Assembly: GCA_049287185.1 (NCBI GenBank)
Contig: JBAQFI010000012.1
Location: 166,179 to 230,178, forward strand
Reading direction: 5' to 3'
Length of the DNA stretch: 64,000 bases
Origin: Minisyncoccia bacterium
GTDB lineage: Bacteria; Patescibacteriota; Minisyncoccia; Phycocordibacterales; GWA1-40-21
Shown here: positions 6,690 to 61,745 of the stretch, one piece after another
Numbering within the stretch: position 1 is the stretch's first letter
Layout of the letters: every line of letters starts with the position of its first letter
The notes under the pieces: model-generated
What the model saw: the letters and a program-made list of their open reading frames with translations, nothing else
Database searches by the model: none
What the model was told of the DNA's origin: nothing
Program-made: the position numbers and the translations under genes

Positions 6690-7943
6690 TTATAGAAGTG
6701 ACTTCTTTCTTAACTGACGACGGTGGGCACCAATGGCAAAACGATGGGCCTCACCATTTATTTCTAATATTTGTTTAGAGTATTTTTTAGTAATGCTAGT
6801 TGAACCAATAATGGCTTTTGGCTGATGCTTTTCATTTTTAACCACGGAAACTACTGGCATAGTTAAATTTTTATCTGTTAAAATTTGTGTTGCTACTTTT
6901 ATCTGTCTTTTATCTCCATCAACTACAATTAAATCTGGTAAAGTCCATTCTGGGTGGTTCAGCCGACGAATTATAAGTTCTCTCAAGGCAGCCAGATCAT
7001 CGCGCTGACTATCCTTAATATTAAACAAACGATATTTCTGAGGTGTGAGTTCACCATTCTCGCTAACGACCATCACTCCTATTTCCGCAGCTCCAGCATG
7101 GTGTGCCACATCATAGGCTTCAATTCTAAATTTATTATTCGTATGATATTCGTTTGTCGATTCGTTGTATTCGTCCATTCGTATATTCGTTAAGCTGTCA
7201 TTTTTAATCAGTGCCACGTCCTGAATATGTTGTGGTGCAAAAAGAGTTCGTTTAACAACATTGGCTTCCTCAAATTTATGTTCTTTAGCCAAGGTTTTCA
7301 TTTCGCTATTTAACTCCTTTACCAAAGTTTTCTTTCTACCAGATAAAAAGTATTTGAGGTGGCGGATTATTTTATTGTAATCACGTTTCGAAATTAAACC
7401 GGAACAAGTACCAGGACAAAGACCAATCTGATAATTAAAACATGGTCTGTTTAGATTTAATGCACATTCACTGCGAAAAGGAAAAATTTTACGAATTATT
7501 CTTAGAGCTTCCTTAAGTGAATTACTTTGAGTAAAAGGTCCAAACTTTTCAGAAATCGGAAAATCAAAATCTTTCTCCAATTCCCTACCACGAATAGTTA
7601 GAACTCTGGGAAAATCTTCTTTGGTTATCACTACCCAATTAAAACTTTTATCATCTTTTTCTTTGGTGTTGTAATAAGGTGTGTGTTTTTTAATTAATGA
7701 GGCTTCAAGAATTAAGGCTTCTAAAACTGAATCTGTGACTTCAAAATCTATCCTGTCAGTCTTGGTTACCATATCTACTAAAAGTGGTCCGCGAGTAGCA
7801 ATCAAATCATTAGCAAAATAACTACGAACACGGTCGCGTAGTGACGTCGCCTTTCCGATATACAAAATCTCCGAGCCTCTCTTAAAGAAGTAAACTCCAG
7901 GCAAATCAGGTAAATTCAGTTTTTTTATATATTGACTTTTCAT
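6690..7943 (-). CDS. uvrC: excinuclease ABC subunit C, short form (GIY-YIG plus RNase H-like endonuclease domain, no C-terminal HhH); carries an in-frame repeat insertion
   Basis: GIY-YIG N-terminus (GVYFF...LYIGKA), UvrC endonuclease domain (IEAYDVAH, VVDGDKRQ). Confidence 0.85.
   Translation of the reverse strand: MKSQYIKKLNLPDLPGVYFFKRGSEILYIGKATSLRDRVRSYFANDLIATRGPLLVDMVTKTDRIDFEVTDSVLEALILEASLIKKHTPYYNTKEKDDKSFNWVVITKEDFPRVLTIRGRELEKDFDFPISEKFGPFTQSNSLKEALRIIRKIFPFRSECALNLNRPCFNYQIGLCPGTCSGLISKRDYNKIIRHLKYFLSGRKKTLVKELNSEMKTLAKEHKFEEANVVKRTLFAPQHIQDVALIKNDSLTNIRMDEYNESTNEYHTNNKFRIEAYDVAHHAGAAEIGVMVVSENGELTPQKYRLFNIKDSQRDDLAALRELIIRRLNHPEWTLPDLIVVDGDKRQIKVATQILTDKNLTMPVVSVVKNEKHQPKAIIGSTSITKKYSKQILEINGEAHRFAIGAHRRQLRKKSLL
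7136..7196. repeat. CGAAT-rich repeat (family A) half-copy inserted in frame inside uvrC (encodes ...IRMDEYNESTNEYHTNN...)
   Basis: about 90 percent identity to intergenic copies at 47157-47213 and rc of 11219-11290; lies at an extra about 17 aa segment relative to E. coli UvrC between the conserved helix and the RxEAxDxxH motif. Confidence 0.65.
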
Positions 7944-11218: not shown

Positions 11219-11358
11219 TACGAATTTCTATACTAATATACGAATGGACGAATGATGCGAATCGATCAACAAATATTATACGAATTAAGAAAATTTCTTT
11301 GTTTGTGTGTCATTTGTTAATCGATTTGTTGTATTTGTGTTATTTGTTGATTTGTTAA
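11219..11358. repeat. CGAAT-rich palindromic repeat element (family A), two inverted half-copies; right half decayed CG to TG (tttgtt units)
   Basis: matches 47076-47213 and 7136-7196. Confidence 0.6.
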
Positions 11359-12969: not shown

Positions 12970-13034
12970 ATTTACCCGGTAAAGTTTTGACTAGTTAAAA
13001 ATCGTAGATTTTTCAGTCAAAATTTTTGCGGGTT
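12970..13034. repeat. MITE-like module family C (tttacccggtaaagttttgac ... gtcaaaatttttgcgggttg), imperfect inverted termini
   Basis: same module in opposite orientation at 21008-21073; termini reused at 47776-47808 and 52823-52903. Confidence 0.55.
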
Positions 13035-13045
13035 GATTCGTTTAC

Positions 13046-16759: not shown

Positions 16760-16834
16760 GTATTAGAAAGTATTGAGTATATAGTATATGGTATATAGTA
16801 TAAAACTAATGACTTTGCTATAGCAAAGTCATTA

Positions 16835-16867
16835 TACTGTATACTAAATACTTGATACTATATACCA
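16835..16867. repeat. heptad direct repeats (ATACTNN)x4-5
   Basis: similar arrays at 19841-19877 and 52741-52770. Confidence 0.5.
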
Positions 16868-16978: not shown

Positions 16979-17066
16979 CCGTCATTGCGAGCGAAGCGAA
17001 GCAATCCAGACTTAATTAATTTTAAAATCCTGGATTGCCGCGGATGAGTACATCCTCGCAATGACA
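16979..17066. repeat. inverted-repeat element family IR-A (arms gtcattgcgagcgaagcgaagcaatccag / ctggattgccgc...ctcgcaatgac), immediately upstream of dnaB
   Basis: arm family recurs at 19239, 27667, 47803, 49757, 51080, 52845, 54418, 56743. Confidence 0.6.
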
Positions 17067-19238: not shown

Positions 19239-19412
19239 CGTCATTGCGAGCCAGTACTCTGGCGCGGCAATCCATCTTAAAAGATAAAATTAATCCTCAC
19301 CACAAGGGCATTTCCATTTTCTACCACGGAGTACCATGAAGAAAATTAGATCACATCGGGAATCCAGTCAAAATTAATTCTGGATCCCATCGTGAGGTCT
19401 TGCCTCACGATG
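19239..19412. repeat. IR-A family element with long internal segment (caccacaagggcatttccattttcta...), right arm degenerate
   Basis: internal segment also inside copies at 49790-49866 and 56810-56870. Confidence 0.5.
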
Positions 19413-19440: not shown

Positions 19441-19470
19441 AAACCCCGCCAAGTGGCGGGTTTTTATTTT
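19441..19470. terminator. bidirectional terminator (ccccgcc aagt ggcgggg) shared by recR and rplU
   Basis: GC hairpin with flanking A/T runs. Confidence 0.7.
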
Positions 19471-19473
19471 AAA

Positions 19474-19791
19474 TTATTTAATTGAGGTTATTTCAACTTT
19501 GAAATAAGGTTGCTGATGGCCAGCTTTCTTAAAATATTTACTTTTTTGTTTGTAGTGAATAACGGTAATTTTAGCAGCACGGTCAATTTCTTTAATAACA
19601 GCGTTAACCAAGGCACCTTTGATATATGGGTTTCCAAGAGTGGTATCATTTCCATCGTCTACTAGTAAAACCTTATCAAAAACAACTTTGTCACCTACTT
19701 TATAGGTTCCAATAATCTTTTCAATATTAAGCACGTCTCCTTTGGAAACGCGATATTGTTTACCTCCTGTTTGTATTACTGCAAATTCCAT
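19474..19791 (-). CDS. rplU: 50S ribosomal protein L21
   Basis: MEFAVIQTGGKQYRV L21 N-terminus. Confidence 0.9.
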   Translation of the reverse strand: MEFAVIQTGGKQYRVSKGDVLNIEKIIGTYKVGDKVVFDKVLLVDDGNDTTLGNPYIKGALVNAVIKEIDRAAKITVIHYKQKSKYFKKAGHQQPYFKVEITSIK

Positions 19792-19840
19792 AAGCGCTAT
19801 AATATACTAAACAGGAACTTTTTGCAAGTCTGTTTTTCTT

Positions 19841-19877
19841 CATACTAAATACTACATACTTGATACTGAATACTAAA
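19841..19877. repeat. heptad direct repeats (ATACTNN)x5 upstream of rplU promoter-like TTGCAA-N17-TATATT
   Basis: 7 bp periodicity of AGTAT on the rplU coding strand. Confidence 0.5.
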
Positions 19878-20955: not shown

Positions 20956-21007
20956 ATTATAGCAAATATGCTAAGATATTTAAACAGCTAATAATTATTA
21001 GATTTAA

Positions 21008-21073
21008 CCCACCCGCAAAAATTTTGACTGAAAAATCTCCGATTTTTAACTAGACAAAACTTTATCGGGCAAG
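21008..21073. repeat. MITE-like module family C, reverse orientation relative to 12970-13034, ends 4 nt before the yqeY-like start codon
   Basis: about 90 percent identical over about 60 bp. Confidence 0.55.
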
Positions 21074-27637: not shown

Positions 27638-27666
27638 TATTTTTTAATATTTAATTTGTTGTATTT

Positions 27667-27738
27667 GTCATTCCCGCGCAGGCGGGAATCCAGGTCTTTC
27701 TTTTAATTTTTCTGGATTCCCGCCTGCGCGGGAATGAC
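27667..27738. repeat. IR-A family element, canonical form: gtcattcccgcgcaggcgggaatccag - 18 bp - ctggattcccgcctgcgcgggaatgac, inside the cop operon
   Basis: perfect inverted arms each containing an 8 bp GC hairpin. Confidence 0.65.
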
Positions 27739-27764
27739 AGAGGATAATTTATAGTTAGTAATTA

Positions 27765-30350: not shown

Positions 30351-30378
30351 ATTATATACCCCCCTGGGGGTATGTCAA
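30351..30378 (-). promoter_or_regulatory. csoR-cop promoter TTGACA-N15-TATAAT with CsoR operator ATACCCCC-CT-GGGGGTAT (30356-30373) in the spacer; -10 ends 6 nt before the ATG (leaderless-like)
   Basis: perfect 8 bp inverted GC-tract half-sites similar to B. subtilis copZA operator; -35 overlaps first bases of MITE-B. Confidence 0.7.
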
Positions 30379-30518
30379 CCCCGTTGTGAGGTTTGGCATC
30401 GTTTTTGAAATTGTGTTTAGTTATCTGTTTTATTATGTATTTGCAAAACAGACCCTAGTATTAAACTAGAGTATGCTTAGACAAAAACAATTTTAATGCC
30501 AAATTCTACAACCGGGTC
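30376..30518. repeat. MITE-like element family B copy 2
   Basis: shares TIRs and about 80 percent of internal sequence with 669-843. Confidence 0.6.
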
Positions 30519-47075: not shown

Positions 47076-47213
47076 GAATTAACGAATCAACAAATGGACA
47101 AATGATACGAATCGAATTGACGAATTTCAACGAATAAAAATATCTCCAGTATTCATTCGTATGATATTTGTTAATCGATTCGTTGTATTCGTGTCATTCG
47201 TATATTCGTTAAA
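47076..47213. repeat. CGAAT-rich palindromic repeat element (family A), two inverted half-copies
   Basis: matches 11219-11358 and 7136-7196. Confidence 0.6.
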
Positions 47214-47767: not shown

Positions 47768-47802
47768 ATGTTTGATTTACCCGGTAAAGTCGACAATTCT
47801 GA

Positions 47803-47835
47803 TTGTCGTCCCCGCGCAGGCGGGGATCCAGTCAG
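47803..47835. repeat. solo IR-A-variant arm (gattgtcgtccccgcgcaggcggggatccagtc) preceded by gacaattctgattgtc palindrome and TTTACCCGGTAAA palindrome just upstream of the frr start
   Basis: same composite upstream of murA at 52823-52903. Confidence 0.5.
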
Positions 47836-47952
47836 ATTATCTTTCTTTCGGGTTAAATTATTACTTGTAATTATACCCGTATTCTAACATAAAACAACAA
47901 ACAAAAGAAAACTGCACCATTTCTGATGCAGTTATGTTTCTGTTTTTTACTT

Positions 47953-48096
47953 TAGTTAGGAACGTACATCCGGCGGAGGGCCATCACCCAATGTGGATCT
48001 ACCCTCTTGGTGTAATGATGAACTGAGGTGGTTGTATTTTCGTCAGCCACCAATCCTTTCATTACTTTGCCTTTTAAGGCCTTCTTTCTAATCATT
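47953..48096 (-). CDS. candidate 47-aa basic/His-containing peptide, GGAGG RBS, GC-rich
   Basis: manual ORF; RBS; coupled to upstream peptide; terminator downstream at about 47912-47950. Confidence 0.3.
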
Positions 48097-48111
48097 TCTA
48101 CCTCCATCAAT

Positions 48112-48237
48112 TAAATTTTTGTTTTTGTTGTTTTCGATATTATGTACTTTTTCCAGTATTTTTGAGCTTAATTTCAAAATTACCGTGCCAACAAGAAATT
48201 CGCTAATCGATATAGCAGCAAAAAGAAATGTCTTCAC
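48112..48237 (-). CDS. candidate 41-aa single-TM peptide with GTG start and AGGAGG RBS
   Basis: manual ORF. Confidence 0.3.
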
Positions 48238-48316
48238 AACAACCTCCTATTCAATTGTTTACTACTCTACAACTATTATACAACCTTTTTAGTAGAATAG
48301 CAAGATGTAAAATTAA

Positions 48317-48346
48317 AAACGGGAGAACTTTTACATTCTCCCGTTT
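48317..48346 (-). terminator. terminator aacgggagaa-loop-ttctcccgtt + T-run for 48363-48872 gene
   Basis: seen directly. Confidence 0.65.
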
Positions 48347-48362
48347 AGGTTTGAGGATCAGA

Positions 48363-48953: not shown

Positions 48954-49760
48954 TTACGCCAATCTAGGTAAAATAATCGCAATATACTCCAAAATAATCT
49001 TAAATGATGACGAGGGATCCTCTGAATAGCGGCAATTTTTTTCTAACTCTGTTAGCCATGACAGATTTTCTTTGGTCTGTTTTTTGTCTTTAACTTTTTG
49101 GAAACAAAGTTTAAGTAATTGTCGTAAAAATTCAGAAATATCCCCCCTCGAAATTTCCTCGTCAGTTCTAGCAGATAGAATTTCACCAACTATTTTTAAG
49201 CGGTCAGCGATACTGCCAGCTAAAAATTCAGATTCATTAAACAAACTGGCACCCTCTTTAAAGGCTGGAATTTCTTCATTCACATCAATAATGACTAAAC
49301 GCGATGAAACTGTCGGTAACAAACGACTTGCGGTCGGTAAAATCAAAAAAATTTTGGTATCTGCTGTCGGTTCTTCAAAAAATTTTAACAAGGAATTTTG
49401 GGCATTAATGTGAATGTCATCAGCCATAATGACTATCACTTTGTTTTTGGCTTGTACTGGAAAACTCTGAGCCGGTAAAATTATCTCTTCTAAAATAGTA
49501 TTGTAATTTGGTTTACCTTCGGGATGAAGTTTTAGTAAGTCATATTCTCGTAAAGAAAAATCCGGATGACCAGTGGTATCAAAATCTAGTTTTTCCAATA
49601 GTTCGCTCTTTAATTCAGTTAAAATAGTTTGTTTGTCCCCCACTAAACAATAAGCGTGATGAGAAAAATCACAGTTTAGTTTTGTAATATTTTTTTTCTG
49701 AGATTTTGCAGACATGGAGAGATTATAACATGAACAAATTATGTTTCTCCAGTCTGTCAT
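48954..49760 (-). CDS. holB: DNA polymerase III delta-prime-like clamp-loader subunit (degenerate P-loop, LPTVSSR sensor region); likely starts at internal Met about 49715
   Basis: AAA+ clamp loader box motifs (FEEP, T.FIL). Confidence 0.65.
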   Translation of the reverse strand: MTDWRNIICSCYNLSMSAKSQKKNITKLNCDFSHHAYCLVGDKQTILTELKSELLEKLDFDTTGHPDFSLREYDLLKLHPEGKPNYNTILEEIILPAQSFPVQAKNKVIVIMADDIHINAQNSLLKFFEEPTADTKIFLILPTASRLLPTVSSRLVIIDVNEEIPAFKEGASLFNESEFLAGSIADRLKIVGEILSARTDEEISRGDISEFLRQLLKLCFQKVKDKKQTKENLSWLTELEKNCRYSEDPSSSFKIILEYIAIILPRLA

Positions 49761-49892
49761 TCCCGCGCAGGCGGGAATCCAGAAATAATAATCAATATTA
49801 ATAAAAACTGACTTTCCGTTGTGACCTAATTTTCTTGAGCGTAGCGATTAGAAAATGGAAATGCCCTTGTGGTACGCGGGAATGACAGAGGA
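49757..49892. repeat. IR-A family element with long internal segment
   Basis: left arm perfect, right arm partial. Confidence 0.55.
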
Positions 49893-49978
49893 ACAGAAAG
49901 CCGGAACCTATAAGGTTCCGGCTTTAACTAAATTAAAATTGTCTTAATTCCGCAATTTTGATTTTTGAATTTTGATTT

Positions 49979-50992
49979 TTACTTTTTACTTATAATACTT
50001 CTCTTATAGACATCTAAGTGTTCCAGTGCAATACCGGTCCCCTTAGCTACACAATACAAGGCCTCTTCGGCCAGAATAGCCTTAACACCTGTACGACGAA
50101 ATACCAGTTCCGGTAAATTACGCAATTGGGATGAACCACCGGTCATAATAATTCCACGATCAATAATATCAGAAGCCAATTCTGGAGGAGTTTCCTGTAA
50201 AACATCTTTGATAGCTTTAATCATGTCCTTAAGCTCACGGCTAATAGCTTTGACAATTTCATTGGTTTTAATTTCGGCAGAACGAGGCAAACCAGAAATA
50301 AAATCTCGGCCTTTGATAGTCATTTGTAATTCTTCTTCGAGTGGTACAGCCGAACCAATTTTAATTTTAATTTCCTCTGAAGTTTGGTCACCAATTGCTA
50401 GATTAAAAGTTTTCTTAATATAATCAGCGATAGCATAGTCAATCTTGTTCCCAGCACATTTAACAGAAGTGGAGGAGACAATACCACCGAGAGAAATCAC
50501 TGCTACGTCAGTTGTTCCACCACCGATGTCCACCACCATATGTCCGGCTGGTTCATAAATTGGAATACCGGCACCAATTGCAGCGAGAATCGGTTCCTTC
50601 ACGACGTAAGCATTTTTAGCTCCGGCCTTAATAGCGGCCTCAATGACTGCCCGACGTTCAGTAGAAGAAACTCCCGCTGGTACAGAAATCATGACATCTG
50701 GTTTAAACAAACTCCACTTACCTAGAGCTTTATTTATAAAATAGCGAAGCATCGCTTCGGTCACGCGATAGTCGGCGATTACACCATCTTTCATCGGACG
50801 ATAAGCAATAATATTGTCAGGGGTTCTACCAATCATTAATTTGGCTTCATTACCAACAGCCAAAATTTTATTATCTTGTTCGGAAACTGCCACTACAGAA
50901 GGTTCAAACAAAACTACACCCTTGCCAGGTAAAAAAACTAGGGTATTAGCTGTTCCTAAGTCAATTCCAATTCGTTTAGTAAAAATGGACAT
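49979..50992 (-). CDS. second MreB/Mbl-like actin homolog
   Basis: GIDLGTANTL and DIGGGTTD motifs. Confidence 0.9.
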   Translation of the reverse strand: MSIFTKRIGIDLGTANTLVFLPGKGVVLFEPSVVAVSEQDNKILAVGNEAKLMIGRTPDNIIAYRPMKDGVIADYRVTEAMLRYFINKALGKWSLFKPDVMISVPAGVSSTERRAVIEAAIKAGAKNAYVVKEPILAAIGAGIPIYEPAGHMVVDIGGGTTDVAVISLGGIVSSTSVKCAGNKIDYAIADYIKKTFNLAIGDQTSEEIKIKIGSAVPLEEELQMTIKGRDFISGLPRSAEIKTNEIVKAISRELKDMIKAIKDVLQETPPELASDIIDRGIIMTGGSSQLRNLPELVFRRTGVKAILAEEALYCVAKGTGIALEHLDVYKRSIISKK

Positions 50993-51079
50993 AATTTTTT
51001 AGCAATATTTGATAATCAGAGTATAGAGGTTTTTAAATAAATTTACAAGTTTGAATACATGAATGACTTTTATCTTTTA

Positions 51080-51160
51080 TCTGTCATTCCCGCGCAGGCG
51101 GGAATCCAGGATTAGATCAAAATAAAATTTCTGGATTCCCGCCTGCGCGGGAATGACAAG
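51080..51160. repeat. IR-A family element, canonical two-arm form
   Basis: near-identical to 27667-27738. Confidence 0.65.
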
Positions 51161-51302
51161 AAAGAATAGCAGAAATGCAGTCATCGTCTTATTATTCCTC
51201 ATAATGATGATATTTGGTAAAAAACATTATCATTGACATAGTTCAGGGTTTCTAGTTAACTGTATCTAGAAACAAGAACACTAAAAAAAGGATACTTAAT
51301 AT

Positions 51303-51434
51303 ATGAGTAAGAAAAGGAAAAAATTCAGACAGGAAAAAACACTGACTGAATGTCCAAAATGCTTAGTAAAATGGACTTCTGAATTAGAGAAAATAATCAA
51401 ATGGAAAAGTATTTGCTGTAACTGTAGAAAATGA
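51303..51434 (+). CDS. candidate 43-aa lysine-rich zinc-ribbon protein (CPKC ... CCNC)
   Basis: manual ORF below track threshold; AAGGAT upstream. Confidence 0.3.
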   Translation: MSKKRKKFRQEKTLTECPKCLVKWTSELEKIIKWKSICCNCRK

Positions 51435-51473
51435 CACAAATAAAAAATTTGATAACTAAAAAAAGGAGGATTT

Positions 51474-51773
51474 ATGAGTATCAGAATCTCTGAAGTAAAG
51501 CCGTCCGAAAAACTTGTAACAGAAGAAATTGGGAGAAGTAAGGATAACAAGGCTGTCGTTTTGAAAATAAACGGCGAAATAATTGTCCTCAAAAGTTCCC
51601 GGTTCAAGTTCAGTGCTCCTGAAGAAGGACCGCCGAATATTCTCTCAAAGAAAGAAATCCAGGAATACAAGAAAAAAAGCGATGCGAGTAAAAGTCCTGC
51701 TTGCCTTGCCCAAGAAAGAAAAGACGACAGAAAAAGATGCAAACTCTGGAAAGAGGGCGAAAAATATCAGTGA
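51474..51773 (+). CDS. hypothetical 99-aa protein with strong AAGGAGG RBS
   Basis: RBS and terminator at 51791-51820. Confidence 0.5.
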   Translation: MSIRISEVKPSEKLVTEEIGRSKDNKAVVLKINGEIIVLKSSRFKFSAPEEGPPNILSKKEIQEYKKKSDASKSPACLAQERKDDRKRCKLWKEGEKYQ

Positions 51774-51790
51774 TAATCATTATCACAAAC

Positions 51791-51820
51791 AAGACGCACT
51801 GAAAAGTGCGTCTTTTATTA
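51791..51820 (+). terminator. terminator aagacgcact-gaaa-agtgcgtctt + T-run
   Basis: seen directly. Confidence 0.7.
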
Positions 51821-51917
51821 TATGAGTATAAAAAAAGACGTACCCGGAGGTAACGTCTTATGAAGCATCAGTCCAAAGATAATTCGGACTGAAAAAGAAA
51901 GAACTAATCTAAAGAGT

Positions 51918-52078
51918 GGAGCTCCTTACTTATTAGGTCGACACACAGTTCAACGCCGGAATGTAATTGGTTGCAGTACAGTCTCACCCGGCTTGGTGGG
52001 ATTTCTTGTTCTCGGGACATTTTCCCCGCAAGAAATTTATCTTGACTTGCCAATACATTATTCCTAGTAAGGAGCTCC
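51918..52078. ncRNA. candidate structured RNA/TIR-bounded unit 1 (closing helix GGAGCUCCUUACU / AGUAAGGAGCUCC, 161 nt)
   Basis: 13 bp perfect terminal complementarity; no credible ORF; flanked by hairpin terminators. Confidence 0.3.
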
Positions 52079-52167
52079 GGGGCTATCATATCATCTAATA
52101 AAAAATTCGCAAATTAAAAACATACCACGTGGTATGTTTAAAAAAAGAAAGAACTAATCTGAAGAAT

Positions 52168-52373
52168 GGAGCTCTTTGTTAAAATGATCGCCGAGCCACA
52201 GGCTAATCATAAATGCATTTGGAGTTTGTATCGCCTATCCCTCTATTGGTGGGATTCTGTGGCATTGTCCCTATTGGGTAGCCATTCGCACACGAGAAAG
52301 GAATAATTCCATCCCGCGAAATAAATACGCGATTATCGGCTAGCCAAATACATTTTTCCTAACAAAGAGCTCC
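52168..52373. ncRNA. candidate structured RNA/TIR-bounded unit 2 (closing helix GGAGCUCUUUGUU / AACAAAGAGCUCC, 206 nt); 5' flank about 30 nt identical to unit 1
   Basis: compensatory change in terminal helix relative to unit 1. Confidence 0.3.
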
Positions 52374-52415
52374 AAAAAGAATACTACACCCGTAAATAAT
52401 TTTGTCAAAAATTAA

Positions 52416-52657
52416 GTAGAACTCTTCGTCGGGCACACAAACCAGATGGTTGTGATTGTGAAATCAAAATTGTGCTGGTGACATCGAGCAAATCCTCTCA
52501 TTGCCCCTAAGGAGATGCTGGATTAACAAAAGATTAACTTTCGAACCACTTCCTCCCGCGCGTCAATTGCCTTGGTGGGCCATTATCTCACCAACTAGCT
52601 GATACGACTAATGCCCGACACAACCCAAAATTTTCACTTAACCCAACGAAGAGCTAC
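52416..52657. ncRNA. candidate structured RNA/TIR-bounded unit 3 (closing helix GUAGAACUCUUCGU / ACGAAGAGCUAC, 242 nt)
   Basis: third variant of terminal helix; followed by strong terminator. Confidence 0.25.
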
Positions 52658-52687
52658 AAAGAATATTATCATCACAGGTTATTTTGT

Positions 52688-52731
52688 AAAGACATCGAGA
52701 CAGAGTGTCTCGATGTCTTTATTTTTCTTTG
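52688..52731 (+). terminator. strong terminator aaagacatcgagaca-gag-tgtctcgatgtcttt + T-run
   Basis: 15 bp stem. Confidence 0.75.
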
Positions 52732-52740
52732 TTTAATACT

Positions 52741-52770
52741 AAATACTGTATACTAGATACTATATACTTT
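52741..52770. repeat. heptad direct repeats (ATACTNN)x4
   Basis: same motif as 16835 and 19841. Confidence 0.5.
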
Positions 52771-52792
52771 TCTGGCTTCTTCATAGCATATG

Positions 52793-52801
52793 TGCTATAA
52801 T
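52793..52801 (+). promoter_or_regulatory. extended -10 TGCTATAAT upstream of HTH-murA
   Basis: TGn-TATAAT. Confidence 0.4.
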
Positions 52802-52822
52802 AAAAAATATATAAATTTAATC

Positions 52823-52903
52823 AACCCACAAAAATTGACAATTCAGATTGTCATCCCCGTGAAGACGGGGATCCAGTCTTAATCAAAACTTTACCGGGTA
52901 AAA
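52823..52903. repeat. family C module termini (caacccacaaaaattgac ... tcaaaactttaccgggtaaa) with an IR-A-variant arm (52845-52878) in the middle; ends 2 nt before the murA start
   Basis: aligned against 12970-13034 and 47776-47835. Confidence 0.5.
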
Positions 52904-52905
52904 AT

Positions 52906-54411
52906 ATGGATAATTTAAATCAAATCGGAAAACTAATTTCTACCTTAAGGCAACAAAAAGGCCTAACTCAGGAACAATTTGCTCAAAAATTAAATACCAC
53001 TCAAAGCGCTATTGCTCGCATTGAAAATGGTGAACAAAATCTAACTACTGAAATGATTTCCAAAATCAGCGAAACTCTAGAAAATAGTTTAGTTTGTGTC
53101 GCTGATGGAGCTATAAATATTGAAATTCACGGTGGTAAAAAACTGGCCGGAGAAATAATTACTAGAACATCCAAAAACGGAGCGGTGGGTCTCCTCTGTG
53201 CTTCCCTACTCAACAAAGGCAAAACTACTTTAAAAAATGTACCAAAGATTGAAGAGGTATATCGTATTATTGAAGTTCTAATTAGTATTGGTGTCAGCAT
53301 CAAATGGGTAAATAATGATTTGGAAATAAAAGTCCCAGCCAAATTATCTTTGAGTAAAATCAATCGGGACTCGGCTATTAAAACTCGCAGTATCATAATG
53401 TTTTTTGGCCCACTAATTCACGAATTTAAAAAATTTCGTTTACCTCGTAGTGGTGGCTGTAAACTTGGTGCTCGATCTATTCAGCCTCACATCTACGCAC
53501 TAGAGGAACTCGGGGTAAAAATTGAAACTAAAGAAAAATATTATGAAATCACTCATAGCGGTTTAAACAAAAATAGAGAAATAATTCTTTATGAGGCTGG
53601 TGACACCGTGACGGAAAACGCTATTATGGCCGCCGCTCGCTTACCCGGCACAACTACTATCAAATACGCCTCCGCCAATTATATGGGTCAGGACCTGTGC
53701 TTCTTTTTGGAAAAGCTAGGTGTAAAAATTCAGGGTATTGGCACCACTACTATCATTGTGGAGGGTAAGGAAAAAATTAACGAAGACATCATTTATTATC
53801 TTGGGGAAGATCCGATTGATAGTATGTTTTTTATTTCTGTCGCAGCCACCACCAATTCTAAAATGAAAATCACTCGTTGTCCGATTAACTTCCTAGAAAT
53901 GGAGTTACTCAAACTAGAAAAAATGGGTTTAAAATTTAAGAAATCAAAAACTTATAAATCTTTAAATGAAAGACTGGACTTAGTTGATATTCAAATTTTT
54001 CCGTCAAAACTCGTTGCCTTGGAAGATAAAATTGAAGCCCATCCTTATCCAGCCATTAATATTGATAACCTACCTTTCTTTGCCGTGATTGCCACCCAAG
54101 CTCAAGGCCAAACTTTTATCCACGACTGGGTTTATGAAAAACGCGCCATCTATTACACTGAGCTAAATAAGCTCGGTGCAGATACCCTTCTAGCTGACCC
54201 TCACAGATTTTATGTGAATGGTAAGACCACTCTAAAACCTGCGGAAATAATCTGCCCGCCAGCTCTCCGTCCAGCGGCCATAATTTTAATTGGTATGCTC
54301 GCCGCCAAAGGACGCTCAGTTTTGCGAAATATCTATAGTATAAATCGCGGTTATGAAGATATTACTAAAAGATTGAATGACATTGGCGCCGATATTCGTA
54401 TTTTAAGATAG
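52906..54411 (+). CDS. murA: UDP-N-acetylglucosamine 1-carboxyvinyltransferase with an N-terminal XRE-family HTH domain (fusion)
   Basis: HTH LRQQKGLTQEQFA...SAIARIENG; MurA GGKKLAGEI, catalytic Cys loop RSGGCKLGARS, C-terminal RGYEDI. Confidence 0.85.
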   Translation: MDNLNQIGKLISTLRQQKGLTQEQFAQKLNTTQSAIARIENGEQNLTTEMISKISETLENSLVCVADGAINIEIHGGKKLAGEIITRTSKNGAVGLLCASLLNKGKTTLKNVPKIEEVYRIIEVLISIGVSIKWVNNDLEIKVPAKLSLSKINRDSAIKTRSIIMFFGPLIHEFKKFRLPRSGGCKLGARSIQPHIYALEELGVKIETKEKYYEITHSGLNKNREIILYEAGDTVTENAIMAAARLPGTTTIKYASANYMGQDLCFFLEKLGVKIQGIGTTTIIVEGKEKINEDIIYYLGEDPIDSMFFISVAATTNSKMKITRCPINFLEMELLKLEKMGLKFKKSKTYKSLNERLDLVDIQIFPSKLVALEDKIEAHPYPAINIDNLPFFAVIATQAQGQTFIHDWVYEKRAIYYTELNKLGADTLLADPHRFYVNGKTTLKPAEIICPPALRPAAIILIGMLAAKGRSVLRNIYSINRGYEDITKRLNDIGADIRILR

Positions 54412-54417
54412 TTTTTT

Positions 54418-54606
54418 CTGTCATTCCCGCGCAGGTTGAAATTTGGGATGGGACCCAAATGAAAGACCTTGAGCGTTTTGTCTTCAAAATGTGAAAGGTG
54501 TACTGCTCCTGTAAGGAGAGAAATTCCAGTCCTTCTATGTTAAAACAATTTACGATTCCTAGATTCCCGCCTGCGCGGGAATGACAACACGAATAACAGG
54601 TTGAAA
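54418..54606. repeat. IR-A family element with left arm interrupted after gcgcag by about 115 bp and duplicated caggttgaaattt / tttttctgtcatt flanks (nested or rearranged copy)
   Basis: right arm intact at 54552-54580. Confidence 0.45.
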
Positions 54607-54640
54607 TTTAGTCATTTTTCTGTCATTATAATAAGAGCGT

Positions 54641-54820: not shown

Positions 54821-56737
54821 ATGAAACTCATCGGCATTATCCCCATTTCAAGAGGCATTGCCAAGGAAAAACTGTCGTATTTTTCGACCGAGGACTTTCC
54901 TATTGGTTCTATTGTCTATGTCTCTCTGCGCAGTAAAAACATTCCTGGTTTAGTTGTTTCCAGCCAGGATGCTCTAGAAGAAAAATCCAGTATCAAGAAA
55001 CTATCATTTACTATTAAAAAAGTCAGTAAGAAACCACCAGTAGAATTGTTTCTACCAAATTTTATTAAAACCTGTCAGGAAGAGGCTCGCTATCTAGCCA
55101 CCACGACTGGTGCTGTACTTTATTCGGTTATGCCGAGTGGTATTTTAGAAAATTTAGATAAAATTGAAAAAACAGAATTAACTGTAAAAAGAAAAAATGA
55201 AGTCGGTGAAAAATTTGTAGTGCAAAGCGATGACGAGGAAAGATATTCTAATTACAAAAGTATCATTCGTGAAGAATTTGCCAAAGGCTATTCAGTTTTC
55301 TTTTGTCTCCCAACAATTCAAGAAACCAAAAAAGCTGTTAGTTTACTTTCCAAAGGTATAGAAACTTACACTTTTGTCTTACATAGTGGCCTGACAAAAA
55401 AGGAAATTCTGAAGACCTGGAACAAAATCATGGCGGAAAAGCACTCCGTCCTAGTAGTTATGACTGGCTCATTCCTTTCTCTACCTCGTCCTGATATTGG
55501 AACCATTATTATTGACCGTGAAAGTTCCCGCTCCTACAAAAGCCAACATCGACCATTTCTAGACATTCGTTGTTTCGCTGAGAAACTAGCCTTAAACTAT
55601 AACGTTCGTCTGGTTCTCGGTGATATTTTATTACGAACTGAGACCATCTGGCGCTATAAGAATAATGAGTTTTTTGAATTATTTCCGCTCAAGTTTCGCT
55701 CTCTTTCCCTCTCTAGTCAAGAAATTATTGATATGTGTCCAAAGCCAGTTGAACAGGACTTTGTTGAAGAAAAAGATAAGAAAAAAATTGAGTTCAAAAT
55801 AATTTCTGATGACTTAGTAAATTTAATAAAAAATAATCAAGACGACAGTGAACATCTGTTTATTTTCTCAGCACGTCGTGGTCTTCATCCAACTACTCTT
55901 TGTGCTGATTGTGGCACGATTGTCACCTGTCATAATTGTAAATCACCAATAGTTCTTCACACAGCTAGTAAAGGTAATTTTTTCCTTTGTCATCGTTGCG
56001 GTGAACGGAGAAGCGCCTCAGAGAAATGTTTTAAATGTGATAGCTGGCGTTTAGCGACACTAGGCATTGGTTCAGAACTTATAGAAAAAGAAATTCAAAA
56101 AATTTTTCCCGATATGAAAATTTTCAGATTAGATGCCGACAATGCTGACTCCCACAAGAAAGCCCTGCAGATTGCCGAGAAATTTTATTCTTCTCCGGGT
56201 TCAATTTTAATTGGTACAGAAATGTCCCTACCATACATTTACGAAAAGATTCAAAACTCAGCCGTTATATCTATGGATGCTTTCTTTTCCCTACCAGACT
56301 TTCGCATTAATGAAAGAATAATTAACATCATATTAAAGATAAAATCCTTTACCAGCAAGAGATTTATTCTTCAGACTAGAAAAGCACAGGCTAAAATCTG
56401 GGATTATGCTGTCCGTGGTAACCTGGCAGATTTTTATCGTGATGAAATTGGCGATCGCCAGATGTTAAGCTACCCCCCATATTCAACTTTGATCAAAATT
56501 AGTTTATTAGGAAATAAAGATGTCGTAGTTGGAGAAATGGAAAAACTACAAAAAGAAATTGAGCCACATATTATTGATATTTTTCCGGCCTTTATTCCAA
56601 GCAAAGCTGGAAAATATCAGATTCATGGACTCATAAAAGTTAAAGGTGATGACTGGGTGGATGAAGCCTTGCTAGAAAAAATTCAGAATTTACCACCAAT
56701 ATTTAACGTAAATGTTAACCCAGAAAGTCTGCTCTAG
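54821..56737 (+). CDS. priA: primosomal protein N' (PriA) homolog with degenerate Walker A and Walker B (DRES) but intact 3'BD and Cys-rich region
   Basis: aligns to PriA around VLHSGL and IIIDRESSRSYKSQ; CxxC x4 region; helicase C-domain. Confidence 0.75.
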   Translation: MKLIGIIPISRGIAKEKLSYFSTEDFPIGSIVYVSLRSKNIPGLVVSSQDALEEKSSIKKLSFTIKKVSKKPPVELFLPNFIKTCQEEARYLATTTGAVLYSVMPSGILENLDKIEKTELTVKRKNEVGEKFVVQSDDEERYSNYKSIIREEFAKGYSVFFCLPTIQETKKAVSLLSKGIETYTFVLHSGLTKKEILKTWNKIMAEKHSVLVVMTGSFLSLPRPDIGTIIIDRESSRSYKSQHRPFLDIRCFAEKLALNYNVRLVLGDILLRTETIWRYKNNEFFELFPLKFRSLSLSSQEIIDMCPKPVEQDFVEEKDKKKIEFKIISDDLVNLIKNNQDDSEHLFIFSARRGLHPTTLCADCGTIVTCHNCKSPIVLHTASKGNFFLCHRCGERRSASEKCFKCDSWRLATLGIGSELIEKEIQKIFPDMKIFRLDADNADSHKKALQIAEKFYSSPGSILIGTEMSLPYIYEKIQNSAVISMDAFFSLPDFRINERIINIILKIKSFTSKRFILQTRKAQAKIWDYAVRGNLADFYRDEIGDRQMLSYPPYSTLIKISLLGNKDVVVGEMEKLQKEIEPHIIDIFPAFIPSKAGKYQIHGLIKVKGDDWVDEALLEKIQNLPPIFNVNVNPESLL

Positions 56738-56742
56738 ATAAC

Positions 56743-56916
56743 CACTCACACTCCGTCATTGCGAGCTGGTATTCCAGCGTGGCAATCCAGGATAATTCAT
56801 AAAAATTAAATACGGAGTCTCACCACAAGGGCATTTCCATTTTCTAATCGCTTCGCTCAAGAAAATTAGGTCTGGATTGCCACGCTTCGCTCGCAATGAC
56901 CGAAGAAGAGTGTGAG
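56743..56916. repeat. IR-A family element (gtcattgcgagctgg...caatccag / ctggattgccacgcttcgctcgcaatgac) with extended outer inverted repeat cactcacactc/gagtgtgag and the shared internal segment
   Basis: seen directly. Confidence 0.55.
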
Positions 56917-56966
56917 GGGTTACTGCTCTAGAATTTTGAGACAAAATAAGCTATATTTATTGAAAT

Positions 56967-57551: not shown

Positions 57552-58401
57552 TCAAAACATAAAAACTGCCTTTATGGGTAGTTCTGAATTTTCCGTTATT
57601 GTTTTAGACAATCTTAAAAAGGCTGGACTAATTCCCGATTTGATTGTGTCAGCTCCTGACAAACCACGTGGTCGCAAAATGGTCATCACTCCAAATGAAG
57701 TGAAAACCTGGGCCATTAAAAATAATATCCCAGTTGTGACTCCTGACAAATTAAAAAATCCTGATTTTCTGGAAGTAATTAAAAATCACGATTTACACAT
57801 TGTTGCTTCCTACGGCAAAATAATTCCGGCTGGAGTTTTATCCAGTGCCAAATATGGCAGTGTAAATATTCATCCTTCCCTACTACCAAAATATCGTGGC
57901 CCATCACCACTCCAAACAGCTATTTTAAATAATGACAAAAATACTGGCATTTCCATTATGCTTTTAGATGCCGAAGTGGATCACGGACCAATTTTAGCTC
58001 AAGAAAATATTTCTCCTGAAAACTGGCCTGTTTCTTTTAATGAACTGGAAAAAATTACGGCTGAGGCTGGAACAAAATTGCTTATCAAAGTTTTACCTGA
58101 CTGGATAAATAATTCGATAAAAGCCCGCGAGCAAGATCACAGCCAAGCAACTTTTACCAAAAAAGTTGAGAAAACTCACGGTCTGATTAGTCTTACCGAT
58201 AAACCTATGACTAATTTACTGAAAACTAAGGCTTATAGCGAATGGCCCAATACTTATTTTATTGTTAAACACAAAGATCGAGATATCCGAGTCATTGTCA
58301 AAGATGCTAAACTTGAGGCTGGTCAGTTTGTCCCAACGAGAGTTATTCCAGAAGGAAAAAAAGAAATGGACTATAAATCATTTCTTCAGGGACTTAAATA
58401 G
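57538..58401 (+). CDS. fmt: methionyl-tRNA formyltransferase (start at MIINN, 14 nt overlap with def)
   Basis: formyltransferase N-domain SLLPKYRG motif and C-domain. Confidence 0.9.
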   Translation: MIINNQNIKTAFMGSSEFSVIVLDNLKKAGLIPDLIVSAPDKPRGRKMVITPNEVKTWAIKNNIPVVTPDKLKNPDFLEVIKNHDLHIVASYGKIIPAGVLSSAKYGSVNIHPSLLPKYRGPSPLQTAILNNDKNTGISIMLLDAEVDHGPILAQENISPENWPVSFNELEKITAEAGTKLLIKVLPDWINNSIKAREQDHSQATFTKKVEKTHGLISLTDKPMTNLLKTKAYSEWPNTYFIVKHKDRDIRVIVKDAKLEAGQFVPTRVIPEGKKEMDYKSFLQGLK

Positions 58402-58405
58402 CACA

Positions 58406-58441
58406 AAAAAACTACTAACCATAATGGTTAGTAGTTTTTTT
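58406..58441. terminator. bidirectional terminator aaaaactactaacc-ataa-tggttagtagttttt
   Basis: seen directly. Confidence 0.75.
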
Positions 58442-58444
58442 GTG

Positions 58445-59029
58445 CTATTTAAGTGTGACACTCTTTATAACCACGGGAGTGATCAACCCTCCTCTATTAT
58501 TTTTCGGGGCCTTGGCCATAGCAGACAAAATATCTAGACCATTAGTTACCCTAGCGAATACTGCGTGTTCACCCTCTAGCCACGGTGCAGCATAGCCAGT
58601 AACAATAAAGAAACCACCACTCTTCTCACCAGTAACTGTTCCCAGTGAACCAAAGGTCATATGTTCATTATTTACTTCATTCCATGACACCTCCATTGTT
58701 GAGGTCGGAGCAGAAAACTGAATGAAATCATTTACCATATCGGACATTCTAACCCCATTATATAAACCAGCTTTAGTTAATTTAATAAATGAATTAACTG
58801 ACAGAGGTGCCGCTTCCTTCAAAAAAGAGATTTCTAAAATACCAAAATTGGTTTCAATGATTGCCCCTTTGGCTGAAGAGTTTAAATTACCAGCATTATC
58901 AATATTGTTATTCGCAAAATAAAGGGAAAGAGATACTGTTATCATCAATAGGAAAATAACAATACTGGAAATTAAAATTGAACGATGTTTTACAAGGTTT
59001 TGTATCATACTACTCTTCCTTACTACCAC
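58445..59029 (-). CDS. ppiB: membrane-anchored cyclophilin-type peptidyl-prolyl isomerase
   Basis: cyclophilin core motifs (FIKL...G.Y.G, FFI). Confidence 0.85.
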   Translation of the reverse strand: MVVRKSSMIQNLVKHRSILISSIVIFLLMITVSLSLYFANNNIDNAGNLNSSAKGAIIETNFGILEISFLKEAAPLSVNSFIKLTKAGLYNGVRMSDMVNDFIQFSAPTSTMEVSWNEVNNEHMTFGSLGTVTGEKSGGFFIVTGYAAPWLEGEHAVFARVTNGLDILSAMAKAPKNNRGGLITPVVIKSVTLK

Positions 59030-59764: not shown

Positions 59765-59836
59765 TCCGTGGTAGCTCAGTGGTAGAGCGATCGCCTGTTA
59801 AGCGATTGGTCGTAGGTTCGATCCCTACCCACGGAG
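59765..59836 (+). tRNA. tRNA-Asn (anticodon GUU)
   Basis: manual cloverleaf: acceptor TCCGTGG/CCACGGA, anticodon loop CTGTTAA, T-loop TTCGATC. Confidence 0.9.
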
Positions 59837-61378: not shown

Positions 61379-61745
61379 AGTTTTTGTTATTATGATTATT
61401 TTCTAATAAGATTTTATAATTTACTTCTGCGAGTTTATCAAAGTAATCAACAAGATCTGAAAGTATCATGTTAGCATCATCGAAACTCATATTTTTGCAA
61501 TAATCGTCTTTGATAGCTTTTTGAAATCTTTCAATAATCTTTCTGCCAAATTTTCCATAAATAATGACAAGGATTAATTCAATGTCTAACAATCCACAAA
61601 TAGTAACTTCTTCGAAACAAAAGATTTCTAGTATTCCTTCATCTAATTTCTTCTTTTGTCTTAAATTAATACATTTTTCTAGTTTTTTCATAATTCTAGT
61701 TTTATATCTCTTCATTGACCACTTTATACTCACACTGCGCTTCAT
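61368..61745 (-). CDS. hypothetical protein in island
   Basis: ORF only. Confidence 0.35.
   Translation of the reverse strand: MKRSVSIKWSMKRYKTRIMKKLEKCINLRQKKKLDEGILEIFCFEEVTICGLLDIELILVIIYGKFGRKIIERFQKAIKDDYCKNMSFDDANMILSDLVDYFDKLAEVNYKILLENNHNNKNYEN

Follow-up and report, generated by a model that had tools for sequence, protein, structure and literature searches.

CGTC-tagged REP repeats in intergenic spacers of a Minisyncoccia genome and their absence from orthologous sites in a close relative

Introduction

Repetitive extragenic palindromes (REPs) of the CGTC-tagged superfamily consist of an unpaired CGTC tag (often TGTC, with CCTC allowed), an 8-9 bp stem starting A,T, a 4-5 nt loop and a CCA tail; they occur mostly as head-to-head dimers in which the tags lie outermost and the spacer measures 20-100 bp, some of them nested in larger palindromes, and were reported in 2013 from five phyla (Di Nocera, De Gregorio & Rocco 2013, PMC3733652). 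The same study equated family CGTC-1 with Neisseria dRS3 and the Rickettsia palindromic element RPE-6, and family CGTC-4 with RPE-4. In Neisseria meningitidis, the commonest 21-mer of REPs and of REP doublets forming hairpins (REPINs) is ATTCCCGCGCAGGCGGGAATC, with 241 copies (Bertels & Rainey, bioRxiv 10.1101/2021.07.10.451892). Here we analyse short paired hairpin repeats in a 64,000-nt stretch of DNA (hereinafter designated the window; GC content 35%) from a Minisyncoccia bacterium (GenBank assembly GCA_049287185.1, contig JBAQFI010000012.1, positions 166,179 to 230,178). Minisyncoccota is a phylum of the candidate phyla radiation (CPR), and we found no description of REPs in CPR bacteria in the open-access literature.

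A first-pass annotation of the window had presented these repeats as a family (IR-A) resembling miniature inverted-repeat transposable elements (MITEs). The family is instead the already described CGTC-tagged REP superfamily, and its repeated unit is a single 27-nt arm rather than an element bounded by terminal inverted repeats. The explanation that accounts best for the observations as a whole, and that we hold to be probable on balance, is that the arms are non-autonomous CGTC-tagged REPs gained in the Minisyncoccia lineage.

Results

Nine intergenic loci carry CGTC-tagged arms

The repeats occupy nine intergenic loci between 16.9 and 56.9 kb of the window, all of those listed in the first-pass annotation, and comprise 13 intact and four partial arms (Table 1). 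The locus at 27667-27738 is built as previously described, with two perfect 27-nt arms (GTCATTCCCGCGCAGGCGGGAATCCAG) in inverted orientation, 18 nt apart. With up to three mismatches allowed, a 22-mer core matches six times in the window and 0.00 times in 100 dinucleotide-preserving shuffles, while half-site patterns match 58 times in the window and 0-6 times in 20 shuffles; chance is therefore excluded as the source of the repeats. At six of the nine loci the arms form head-to-head dimers, with their tags outermost and 18-112 nt between them; the others are one composite locus and two solo arms. The inter-arm spacers measure 18, 20, 21, 81, ~92 and ~112 nt, so that the separation of 18-90 bp given earlier holds at its lower end and is slightly too narrow at its upper end.

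Two types of arm can be distinguished. Type A reads (C/T)GTC-ATTCCCGC-GCAG-GCGGGAAT-CCA(G), with an unpaired tag, an 8-bp stem, a 4-nt loop and a tail, and includes stem variants at 47805 (GTCGTCCCCGC...GCGGGGATCCAG) and 52850 (GTCATCCCCGT-GAAG-ACGGGGATCCAG), both of them compensated. Type B (CGTCATTGCGAG...GGCAATCCAG) reads CGTC-ATTGC-GA-(inner hairpin)-G(Y)G-GCAAT-CCAG, with a 5-bp outer stem and a GA/GYG internal loop; it has the tag, the first five stem pairs (ATTGC/GCAAT) and the tail in common with type A, and its inner hairpin is variable. The three long type B copies contain three different inner stems (GGATG/CATCC, GCCAG/CTGGC and GCTGG/CCAGC), each fully complementary. Either T or C precedes GTC in the type A tags of the window and C in those of type B, and the tail is CCA(G) in all intact arms except one with CTA (12/13). 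The dimer at 27660-27745 folds as a 28-bp hairpin at -39 kcal/mol (z = -14), and that at 51076-51164 folds at -40 kcal/mol (z = -13).

The 21-mer within the type A arm is exactly the Neisseria REPIN master sequence, and type A arms display every testable CGTC-1 feature: tag, stem, loop, tail and head-to-head dimers. The variants ATCCCCGT-GAAG-ACGGGGAT and GTCCCCGC-GCAG-GCGGGGAT fit the CGTC-1 stem and loop, save that the first stem base at 47805 is G and not A. We are highly confident that the arms are CGTC-tagged REPs and that type A is family CGTC-1. Type B is, to judge by its sequence, a related variant within the superfamily whose 5-bp outer, two-tier stem lies outside the published stem-loop lengths. 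No Rfam family reached its gathering threshold over the arms, where only sub-threshold noise was returned (miRNA models; FtrB at 29-30 bits against a cut-off of 66).

The repeats also resemble CGTC-1 as described (PMC3733652) in being extragenic, in their occasional nesting in larger palindromes and in having no adjacent transposase. They differ in their Minisyncoccia (CPR) host, which falls outside the five phyla reported, in short spacers (18-21 nt) at the low end of the reported range, and in the second arm type, whose two-tier stem departs from the 8-9 bp stem and 4-5 nt loop. With the Neisseria dRS3/NIME/REPIN population (10.1101/2021.07.10.451892) they share the identical 21-mer and inverted doublets that form hairpins; the large mosaic clusters of Neisseria are absent here, and the window yielded no counterpart of the cognate REP-associated tyrosine transposase (RAYT) described from Neisseria. 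Doublet spacing is 18-21 nt here and typically 48 nt in isolate-derived viral contigs, whose origin was not identified. Genome GC content also differs, at 35% here and ~52% in Neisseria.

The two short A/A dimers have spacers with no relationship to each other (GTCTTTCTTTTAATTTTT and GATTAGATCAAAATAAAATTT), solo arms exist, and seven of the nine loci have no flanking direct repeat; we therefore take the single arm as the unit. Homology of the 24-nt outer flanks of the 27.7-kb and 51-kb dimers was considered and rejected, since identity outside the arms is ~58% in AT-rich DNA.

The genes flanking the loci, identified with Pfam, are CsoR-CopA-HMA/DsbD_2, HolB, MreB, HTH-MurA, PriA, Def, CysS/DnaB, RecR/L21 and RRF, in agreement with the earlier placement of copies in the cop, holB/mreB, murA/priA and priA/def gaps. 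The only overlaps with open reading frames (ORFs) are with spurious short ORFs or an over-extended holB start. In all, the extragenic copy number amounts to nine loci within 40 kb of the window. Five of them begin 9-26 nt past a stop codon, the B/B dimer at 16981-17065 ends 16 nt upstream of the dnaB ATG, and the solo arms lie 30-38 nt upstream of the murA and frr starts.

A second, independent assembly of this strain, from Logan (L001), matches the window at 100% identity over 49845-51108 and terminates within two repeat loci. We rejected assembly artefact or contamination as the source of the repeats, since the independent assembly is identical through the arms and the base composition of the spacers is that of the host. 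Because Logan contigs end inside them, the elements evidently break short-read assemblies of this organism.

The same dimer is present in more than ten phyla

A scan of Genome Taxonomy Database (GTDB) genomes for doublets of the 21-mer placed 12-42 nt apart returned at least 120 stretches, from more than ten phyla and from hosts of 34-70% GC. The hosts include Alpha-, Beta-, Gamma-, Delta- and Zetaproteobacteria, Planctomycetota, Bacteroidota, Cyanobacteria, Chloroflexota, Hydrogenedentes, Deferribacteres and Firmicutes (Sporobacter termitidis DSM 10068), and four CPR genomes are among the matches listed, namely Ca. Paceibacterota (L141), Saccharibacteria (L181), Parcubacteria (L196) and Falkowbacteria (L213). 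Complete genomes of cultured isolates carry the dimer as well, so the spread does not arise from binning errors. The exact 27-mer is found in 113 stretches of IMG/VR contigs with 41-69% GC. Type B arms likewise occur in Bacteroidota, Betaproteobacteria and Parcubacteria (L196) loci, where they stand together with type A.

Of the tags in the collected loci, 173 are CGTC and 105 TGTC, and 244 of about 300 arms have CCA as their tail. Spacers from different taxa show no relationship to one another, and in GC content they track the host (r = 0.62, slope 1.05). An anchored search for GTCA-N18-TCCA in 2.1 Mb retrieved 42 distinct sequences with 8/8 stem positions paired and 16 with 7/8, against a background of 1-4 pairs, giving a bimodal distribution; compensated stems are numerous and include ATTCCCAC/GTGGGAAT, ACTCCCGC/GCGGGAGT and ATTCCGGC/GCCGGAAT. 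The bimodal pairing and the compensated stems together indicate that the hairpin itself is the conserved object.

Orthologous sites in the closest relative lack the arms

The closest relative is represented by two contigs, L247 (JGI 3300048804) and L248 (Logan SRR35912773), with the same gene order as the window, 98% protein identity in MreB and ~86% DNA identity. A third contig from the same JGI sample as L247 (L237) holds the syntenic mraZ...csoR-copA-HMA/DsbD_2 block at 87% protein identity, and L237 and L247 presumably derive from the same organism. Arms are missing from all four orthologous sites that can be compared (0/4). The spacer between copA and HMA/DsbD_2 measures 127 nt in the window, dimer included, and 79 nt in the relative, where it contains an unrelated hairpin. 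The mreB-holB spacer, which in the window spans ~260 nt with an AT-rich stretch, a terminator-like hairpin and the long REP element, is 22 nt long in the relative, and the 193 nt upstream of mreB in the window, again including a dimer, correspond to 39 nt. In the frr leader, the place of the REP arm is taken in the relative by an AT-rich hairpin of a leader cassette that is found twice more in the window; this is the cleanest comparison, because both flanks align well.

No arm was detected in ~16 kb of the closest relative, while the matching stretch of the window holds four loci, and none in 8-18 kb of more distant relatives (73% identity). The priA-def spacer was rejected as a further empty site, as the PriA-based scan yielded only one 1.5-kb metagenome contig, with a different downstream gene and a non-REP hairpin of its own. 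Alongside its perfect copies, the window has a decayed one at 54420, where six of the 12 positions of the 3' half are off consensus by our own comparison rather than by a tool score; such a mixture is expected if elements are copied and then decay. Gain of the arms after the split from the closest sampled relative (~86% nucleotide identity), followed by decay, is the simplest reading, and we think it likely that the arms are mobile now, or recently were, in the Minisyncoccia lineage. The four empty sites thus supply the mobility signature that the first-pass annotation had called for in a comparison of empty and filled sites. Its suggestion of ongoing activity is not borne out as such; the data show gain since the split and a mixture of perfect and decayed copies.

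These sites also bear on the idea that the arms are fixed, immobile host elements, whose hairpins are selected for mRNA stabilisation or processing or for binding of proteins such as gyrase or nucleoid proteins, and which spread by recombination or gene conversion only. The invariance of the arm across phyla, with spacers drifting to host composition, is compatible with this idea, as are the siting of five loci shortly past stop codons and the location of all examined loci inside or between genes that are co-directional or convergent, a setting in which a hairpin in the transcript could have an effect. The window contains no transposase gene apart from a putative serine recombinase (59825-61378), and for E. 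coli REPs, roles in mRNA stability or processing or in protein binding are documented (PMC3733652). Immobile elements would, however, hardly be missing from all four sites in the closest relative, patchy within CPR and decayed beside perfect copies. Their position and orientation relative to genes are inconsistent, with some upstream of starts and others past stops, and selection for a generic hairpin would not keep 27 nt identical over genomes of 34%-70% GC. We therefore consider fixation of immobile elements distinctly unlikely.

Composite loci and the internal module

A 51-nt internal module, recognised earlier as shared between copies, is 98% identical between 56822-56872 and the reverse complement of 49823-49873, and a further copy of its first 25-28 nt lies at 19296-19323. 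Neither viral contigs nor any other locus of the comparison set contain a match to the module. In the element at 49756-49886, the right arm appears to have been split in its loop by the module, with its 5' half at 49875-49886 and a degenerate 3' half at 49808-49822. The occurrence of the module with type A arms at one locus (49823) and with type B arms at another (56822) indicates that it moved or was exchanged independently of the arms.

In Neisseria, dRS3 serves as an attachment or target site for elements of the IS110/IS1111 insertion sequence (IS) family or for filamentous phage, and the arms might persist here as landing pads of the same sort for other mobile elements. The module fits such a use, being nearly identical beside two arm types and apparently splitting one arm in its loop, as does the presence of the 27-mer in viral contigs. 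IS elements insert into REPs in Pseudomonas, Neisseria and Sinorhizobium (PMC3733652), and IS1111 targets the GTAG REP of Coxiella (PMC5896051). This proposal would explain how arms are used, however, and not how they originated or spread; no IS110-family or phage genes adjoin the arms in the window, and the sole recombinase (59825-61378) is 3 kb from the nearest arm, beside a tRNA gene. As an account of the repeats it is very improbable.

Flanking direct repeats exceed chance at two loci, one with 10 nt repeated at 56729/56923 and one with 13 nt at 54413/54615, and the other seven have none, so the target-site duplications looked for at the copies are not a general feature. In the locus at 54413-54627, two sequences of 13 nt are each repeated exactly and in direct orientation, the second pair in swapped order (X-6 nt-Y ... 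Y-5 nt-X; 0/300 shuffles), and the repeats at 54413 overlap the arm itself. The duplicated flanks reported for it are confirmed in part; in their swapped order the repeats mark a rearrangement and no simple target-site duplication. At 56729-56932, the 10-bp direct repeat CTGCTCTAGA, for which 0.05 occurrences are expected in the window, brackets a 184-bp unit with 15-bp inverted ends (TAACCACTCACACTC at 56739-56753 against the complement at 56908-56922, 14/15 matching). The 15-nt inverted end is absent from the rest of the window and from all 248 comparison loci.

The locus at 56729-56932 resembles a DDE-type MITE insertion and the QMITE2 element of Coxiella burnetii, in which a REP is enclosed in a MITE of 150-190 bp that has inverted ends and direct repeats of 7-11 nt, smaller copies being bare REPs (PMC5896051). 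QMITE2 differs in containing a GTAG REP and in having ends common to its copies, whereas the outer inverted ends here are limited to one locus; because these ends occur nowhere else in the data, the locus may be a single composite event. The repeats as a whole could be read, by extension, as classical MITEs, that is, non-autonomous derivatives of DDE-type IS elements bounded by terminal inverted repeats and target-site duplications, with REP arms as cargo or ends, a structure proposed for QMITE2. Excision of the 184-bp unit together with one repeat copy restores a compact 34-nt priA-def spacer, the 13-nt direct repeats at 54413-54627 point the same way, and the lineage-specific insert upstream of mreB (~165 nt) is larger than the dimer. 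This extension meets difficulties in the seven loci without flanking repeats, in the restriction of the inverted end to one locus, in the solo arms and in spacers that vary between dimers. No DDE transposase is near the elements in the window and none recurs around the 120 dimers listed, and the repeats at 54413 overlap the arm and are interleaved in swapped order with the second repeat. MITE-like architecture, as first proposed, therefore stands for the one locus at 56729-56932 and not for the others, and for the family in general the MITE explanation seems improbable.

Table 1 Positions of arms, modules and composite spans in the window
Feature	Position	Strand	Remarks
Type B arm, short inner hairpin	16981-17009	+	CGTC tag from 16980; left arm of B/B head-to-head dimer
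Type B arm, two-tier stem ATTGC-GA-GGATG-TACT-CATCC-GCG-GCAAT	17030-17065	-	Right arm of B/B dimer; 20-nt spacer
Type B arm, inner stem GCCAG/CTGGC, tail CCAT	19240-19275	+	18 nt past recR stop; composite locus 19240-19412
Module variant copy	19299-19352	+	Ends conserved, central loop divergent; composite locus 19240-19412
Half arm ACATCGGGAATCCAG, 3' half of A-type arm	19353-19367	+	Composite locus 19240-19412
Atypical arm CATCGTGAGG-CAAGA-CCTCACGATG-GGATCCAG	19380-19412	-	Family tail, without GTC tag; read from the sequence
Type A (CGTC-1) arm, perfect 27-mer	27667-27693	+	copA / HMA-DsbD_2 spacer
Type A arm, perfect 27-mer	27712-27738	-	28-bp hairpin with 27667-27693
Solo arm variant GTCGTCCCCGCGCAGGCGGGGATCCAG	47805-47831	+	Within frr leader cassette; adjacent small hairpin 47791-47808 overlaps tag
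Type A arm, perfect	49756-49782	+	Left arm of long-form element between mreB and holB
Degenerate 3' half of right arm (CTGACTTTCCGTTGT on +)	49808-49822	-	Parted from 5' half by module; by our own reading
51-nt internal module	49823-49873	-	98% identical to 56822-56872
5' half of right A-type arm (GTCATTCCCGCG)	49875-49886	-	Half-site pattern match
Type A arm, perfect	51083-51109	+	Left arm of A/A dimer 91 nt upstream of mreB start
Type A arm, perfect	51131-51157	-	Right arm of A/A dimer; 21-nt spacer
Solo arm variant GTCATCCCCGTGAAGACGGGGATCCAG, compensated stem change	52850-52876	+	In leader cassette, 30 nt upstream of murA ATG
Span bounded by 13-nt direct repeat TTTTTCTGTCATT (54413-54425, 54615-54627)	54413-54627		Second 13-nt repeat CAGGTTGAAATTT (54432-54444, 54597-54609) in swapped order
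Type A arm, first 16 nt intact, 3' half decayed	54420-54446	+	Locus 54420-54585
Type A arm, tail CTAG for CCAG	54559-54585	-	Right arm of 54420 locus
Envelope of 56755 locus, 10-bp direct repeat CTGCTCTAGA (56729-56738, 56923-56932)	56729-56932		Repeat only twice in window
Type B arm, inner stem GCTGG/CCAGC	56755-56790	+	18 nt past priA stop
51-nt internal module with own 7-bp AT stem	56822-56872	+	Between B arms
Type B arm, short inner hairpin	56872-56900	-	Right arm of 56755 locus

Candidate routes of mobilisation

The arms could spread as non-autonomous hairpin elements of single-stranded DNA that an HUH Y1 transposase (RAYT or IS200-like), encoded elsewhere, excises and inserts in trans. 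Mobilisation in trans by such an enzyme acting on the single-stranded hairpin is the likeliest mechanism that we can propose, tentative as it is and short of probable. It is favoured by the tag-stem-tail anatomy, which parallels that of GTAG REPs, and by the lack of target duplications at most copies, as HUH transposition produces none. It is favoured further by the nesting of dimers in the loops of larger locus-specific palindromes, seen in the window (56739/56908, 14/15 positions) and in Saccharibacteria (L181, 16/16); from these two cases we suspect preferred landing in single-stranded or hairpin-loop DNA.

In the REPIN-RAYT systems of Pseudomonas and E. coli (GTAG REPs with RayT/TnpA-REP), the REPs have, like the arms here, an unpaired 4-nt foot and an intergenic location, with most copies lacking a target duplication, and two inverted REPs fold into one long hairpin. 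The foot is CGTC here and GT[AG]G there, no RAYT flanked by arms was found, and a population of near-identical whole doublets, spacer included, as in those systems, is not seen in the window.

Several observations weigh against this mechanism or against simple gain of the arms. A jackhmmer search seeded with E. coli RayT over ORFs of at least 70 aa, with Pfam applied on the candidate spot, found no Y1 transposase in the 64-kb window. Extended to the ORFs of 234 further loci, the search returned Y1 proteins only in L168 and L188, both confirmed as Pfam Y1_Tnp, so that a RAYT accompanies only two of the 120 dimer-bearing loci listed. One of these, in Viridibacterium (L168), has a CGTC-1 dimer 3 nt from the RAYT ORF, yet orthologues of this RAYT in Uliginosibacterium and Niveibacterium (64-69% identity) keep the aroK-aroB-dgt-RAYT context with no arm; the adjacency is thus possibly fortuitous and lends no support to a RAYT link. 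No transposase flanked by CGTC repeats was found in the original survey either (PMC3733652). Since the A/A spacers are unrelated, the dimer is not copied as a unit, unlike a classical REPIN, and the 10-bp direct repeat at 56729-56932 is at odds with duplication-free HUH transposition. At both mreB sites, finally, the extra DNA relative to the closest relative exceeds the REP element, and its boundaries are not clean.

A 145-aa Y1_Tnp gene lies two genes past the cop operon in a syntenic CPR relative (ENA ERZ1426829), and three other relatives have no counterpart of it. All-against-all clustering of the ORFs around the 120 dimers listed gave generic families only (ABC transporters, response regulators, SDR, GGDEF/EAL) and no recurrent transposase-like family. 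The literature is divided on RAYT as the mover of CGTC repeats: Bertels & Rainey tie ATTCCCGCGCAGGCGGGAATC in Neisseria to a Group 2 RAYT, of which a frameshift in N. gonorrhoeae accompanies REPIN decay (10.1101/2021.07.10.451892), while GTAG and CGTC repeats coexist in Neisseria (PMC3733652), which leaves room for mis-assignment of the RAYT link.

The mover might alternatively be an HUH enzyme other than a RAYT, a phage- or host-borne factor acting in trans, or a route through the stem-plus-CCA tail, which resembles the acceptor end of a tRNA, with the element or its mobiliser crossing phyla. Such crossing would account for an identical 27-mer in genomes of 34-70% GC. We regard this alternative as unlikely, and trans-mobilisation by an HUH Y1 enzyme as the better candidate.

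The arms are not intrinsic terminators

GC-rich intergenic hairpins, several of them just past stop codons, might also be rho-independent terminators or attenuators that only seem to be repeated. The arms are not intrinsic terminators, because they lack T-tails: no T-run follows any of them, and between 46.5 and 57.5 kb a terminator scan picked out 13 hairpins with T-tails, none of which is an arm. The first-pass annotation had set this possibility aside on similar grounds, and correctly so. Hairpins that do look like terminators stand alongside the elements, at 19445-19475 and at 49897-49926, the latter read from the sequence and not called by the scan. One dimer ends directly before dnaB and the solo arms precede murA and frr, positions ill suited to terminators, and the sequences are identical to a repeat family of many phyla. 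A terminator origin therefore deserves hardly any credence. By analogy with REPs in other bacteria, arms within operons would be co-transcribed and might form very stable RNA hairpins that make the mRNA more or less stable or shift the balance between upstream and downstream cistrons.

Consequences for gene calls

The short ORFs running through arms, with peptides such as ...VIPAQAGIQ... and ...LDSRLRGNDR..., are spurious. The mechanical holB ORF (48954-49760) takes its initiating ATG from the REP arm (GTCAT, other strand); in an alignment with the relative, the real holB start would be the ATG of ATGTCTGCAAAATC, ~40-50 nt further in.

Other features of the window and its relatives

Both solo REP arms sit inside a leader cassette, AACCC(R)CAAAAATTTTGAC-(AT-rich hairpin)-TAGTCAAAACTTTAYCGGGYAA-N5-7-ATG, that precedes several unrelated genes. 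It is found at 12972-13038 (-), 21006-21072 (+), 47768-47790 and 52884-52905 and in the relative (L247, 3225-3290), and two copies are 91% complementary over 67 nt. In frr, in murA and in the gene at 21077, the start codon is immediately preceded by a near-palindrome, CTTTACCGGGTAAA. The solo arms at 47805 and 52850 are alike over 68 nt (78% identity) because both lie in this cassette, which may be a shared promoter, 5' untranslated region or regulator site. The murA gene itself (52906-54411) is fused to an N-terminal HTH_3 (XRE-type) DNA-binding domain.

Several other repeats are present. One of ~170 nt (672-840 and 30378-30515; blocks of 81-95% identity) contains the hairpin AAAACAGACCCTAG...CTAGGGTCTGTTT; its second copy, flanked by csoR and the divergent gene at 30609, adjoins a CsoR-box-like palindrome, ATACCCCCCTGGGGGTAT (30358-30375), and a same-strain Logan contig ends beside its first copy. 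ATACT pentamer arrays with an 8-nt period occur just past terminator-like hairpins at 16826-16866, 19834-19874 and 52728-52768, with an inverse array at 16762-16800, such that AGTAT and ATACT arrays are symmetric around a hairpin in 16762-16866. Arrays of ATTCGT/ATTTGT with an 8-9 nt period are located at 7137-7190, 11232-11285 (-), 11301-11358 and 47155-47212; three are intergenic, and one is translated in frame within the long ORF 6690-7943. A perfect 31-nt inverted repeat with a 1-nt gap (58392-58454), AT-rich and unlike the REP arms, separates fmt from the convergent gene at 58445-59029.

The regions 51160-52850 and 47934-48360 contain several terminator-like hairpins and no convincing ORF or Pfam match, and may hold unannotated small RNAs or small proteins. 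The former includes a 36-nt repeat at 51892 and 52142, and its part 51228-51511 is 86% conserved in L247. A LOOT RNA (Rfam RF03000) is recognised at 62618-62735 (+) with 73 bits against a gathering score of 46. The 517-aa ORF at 59825-61378 (-), a probable large serine recombinase by its N-terminal motif, adjoins the tRNA gene at 59765-59836, whose T-arm was the only false positive of a loose arm detector; 59765-61745 may be the edge of an integrated element. In relatives (ENA ERZ1426829, L239 and L245), the cop operon lies beside the 145-aa Y1_Tnp gene, a Thoeris-like ThsA/ThsB pair, or a serine recombinase with a Hachiman-like HamA, and these varied, island-like contexts suggest that the cop cluster is horizontally mobile in the group.

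Discussion

For annotation, the repeats are best labelled CGTC-type REP or dRS3-like repeats rather than a new MITE. Their occurrence in CPR bacteria (Minisyncoccia, Paceibacterota, Falkowbacteria and Saccharibacteria) is new, as is that in Planctomycetota, Cyanobacteria, Chloroflexota and Firmicutes, and extends the distribution far beyond the five phyla of 2013. Many Rickettsia palindromic elements are inserted in frame within genes, whereas all nine loci here (9/9) are intergenic. The families RPE-6 and RPE-4, equated with CGTC-1 and CGTC-4 (PMC3733652), otherwise offer a parallel in a small, AT-rich and host-dependent genome.

The absence of arms from all four compared sites in the sister lineage is direct comparative evidence of CGTC-repeat turnover. 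If the mover should be something other than a RAYT, the Minisyncoccia genome, which we assume to measure ~1 Mb, would be the smallest gene set in which to find a CGTC mobiliser. More generally, a very small genome with a recent expansion of these repeats is a convenient place to settle the disagreement over RAYT.

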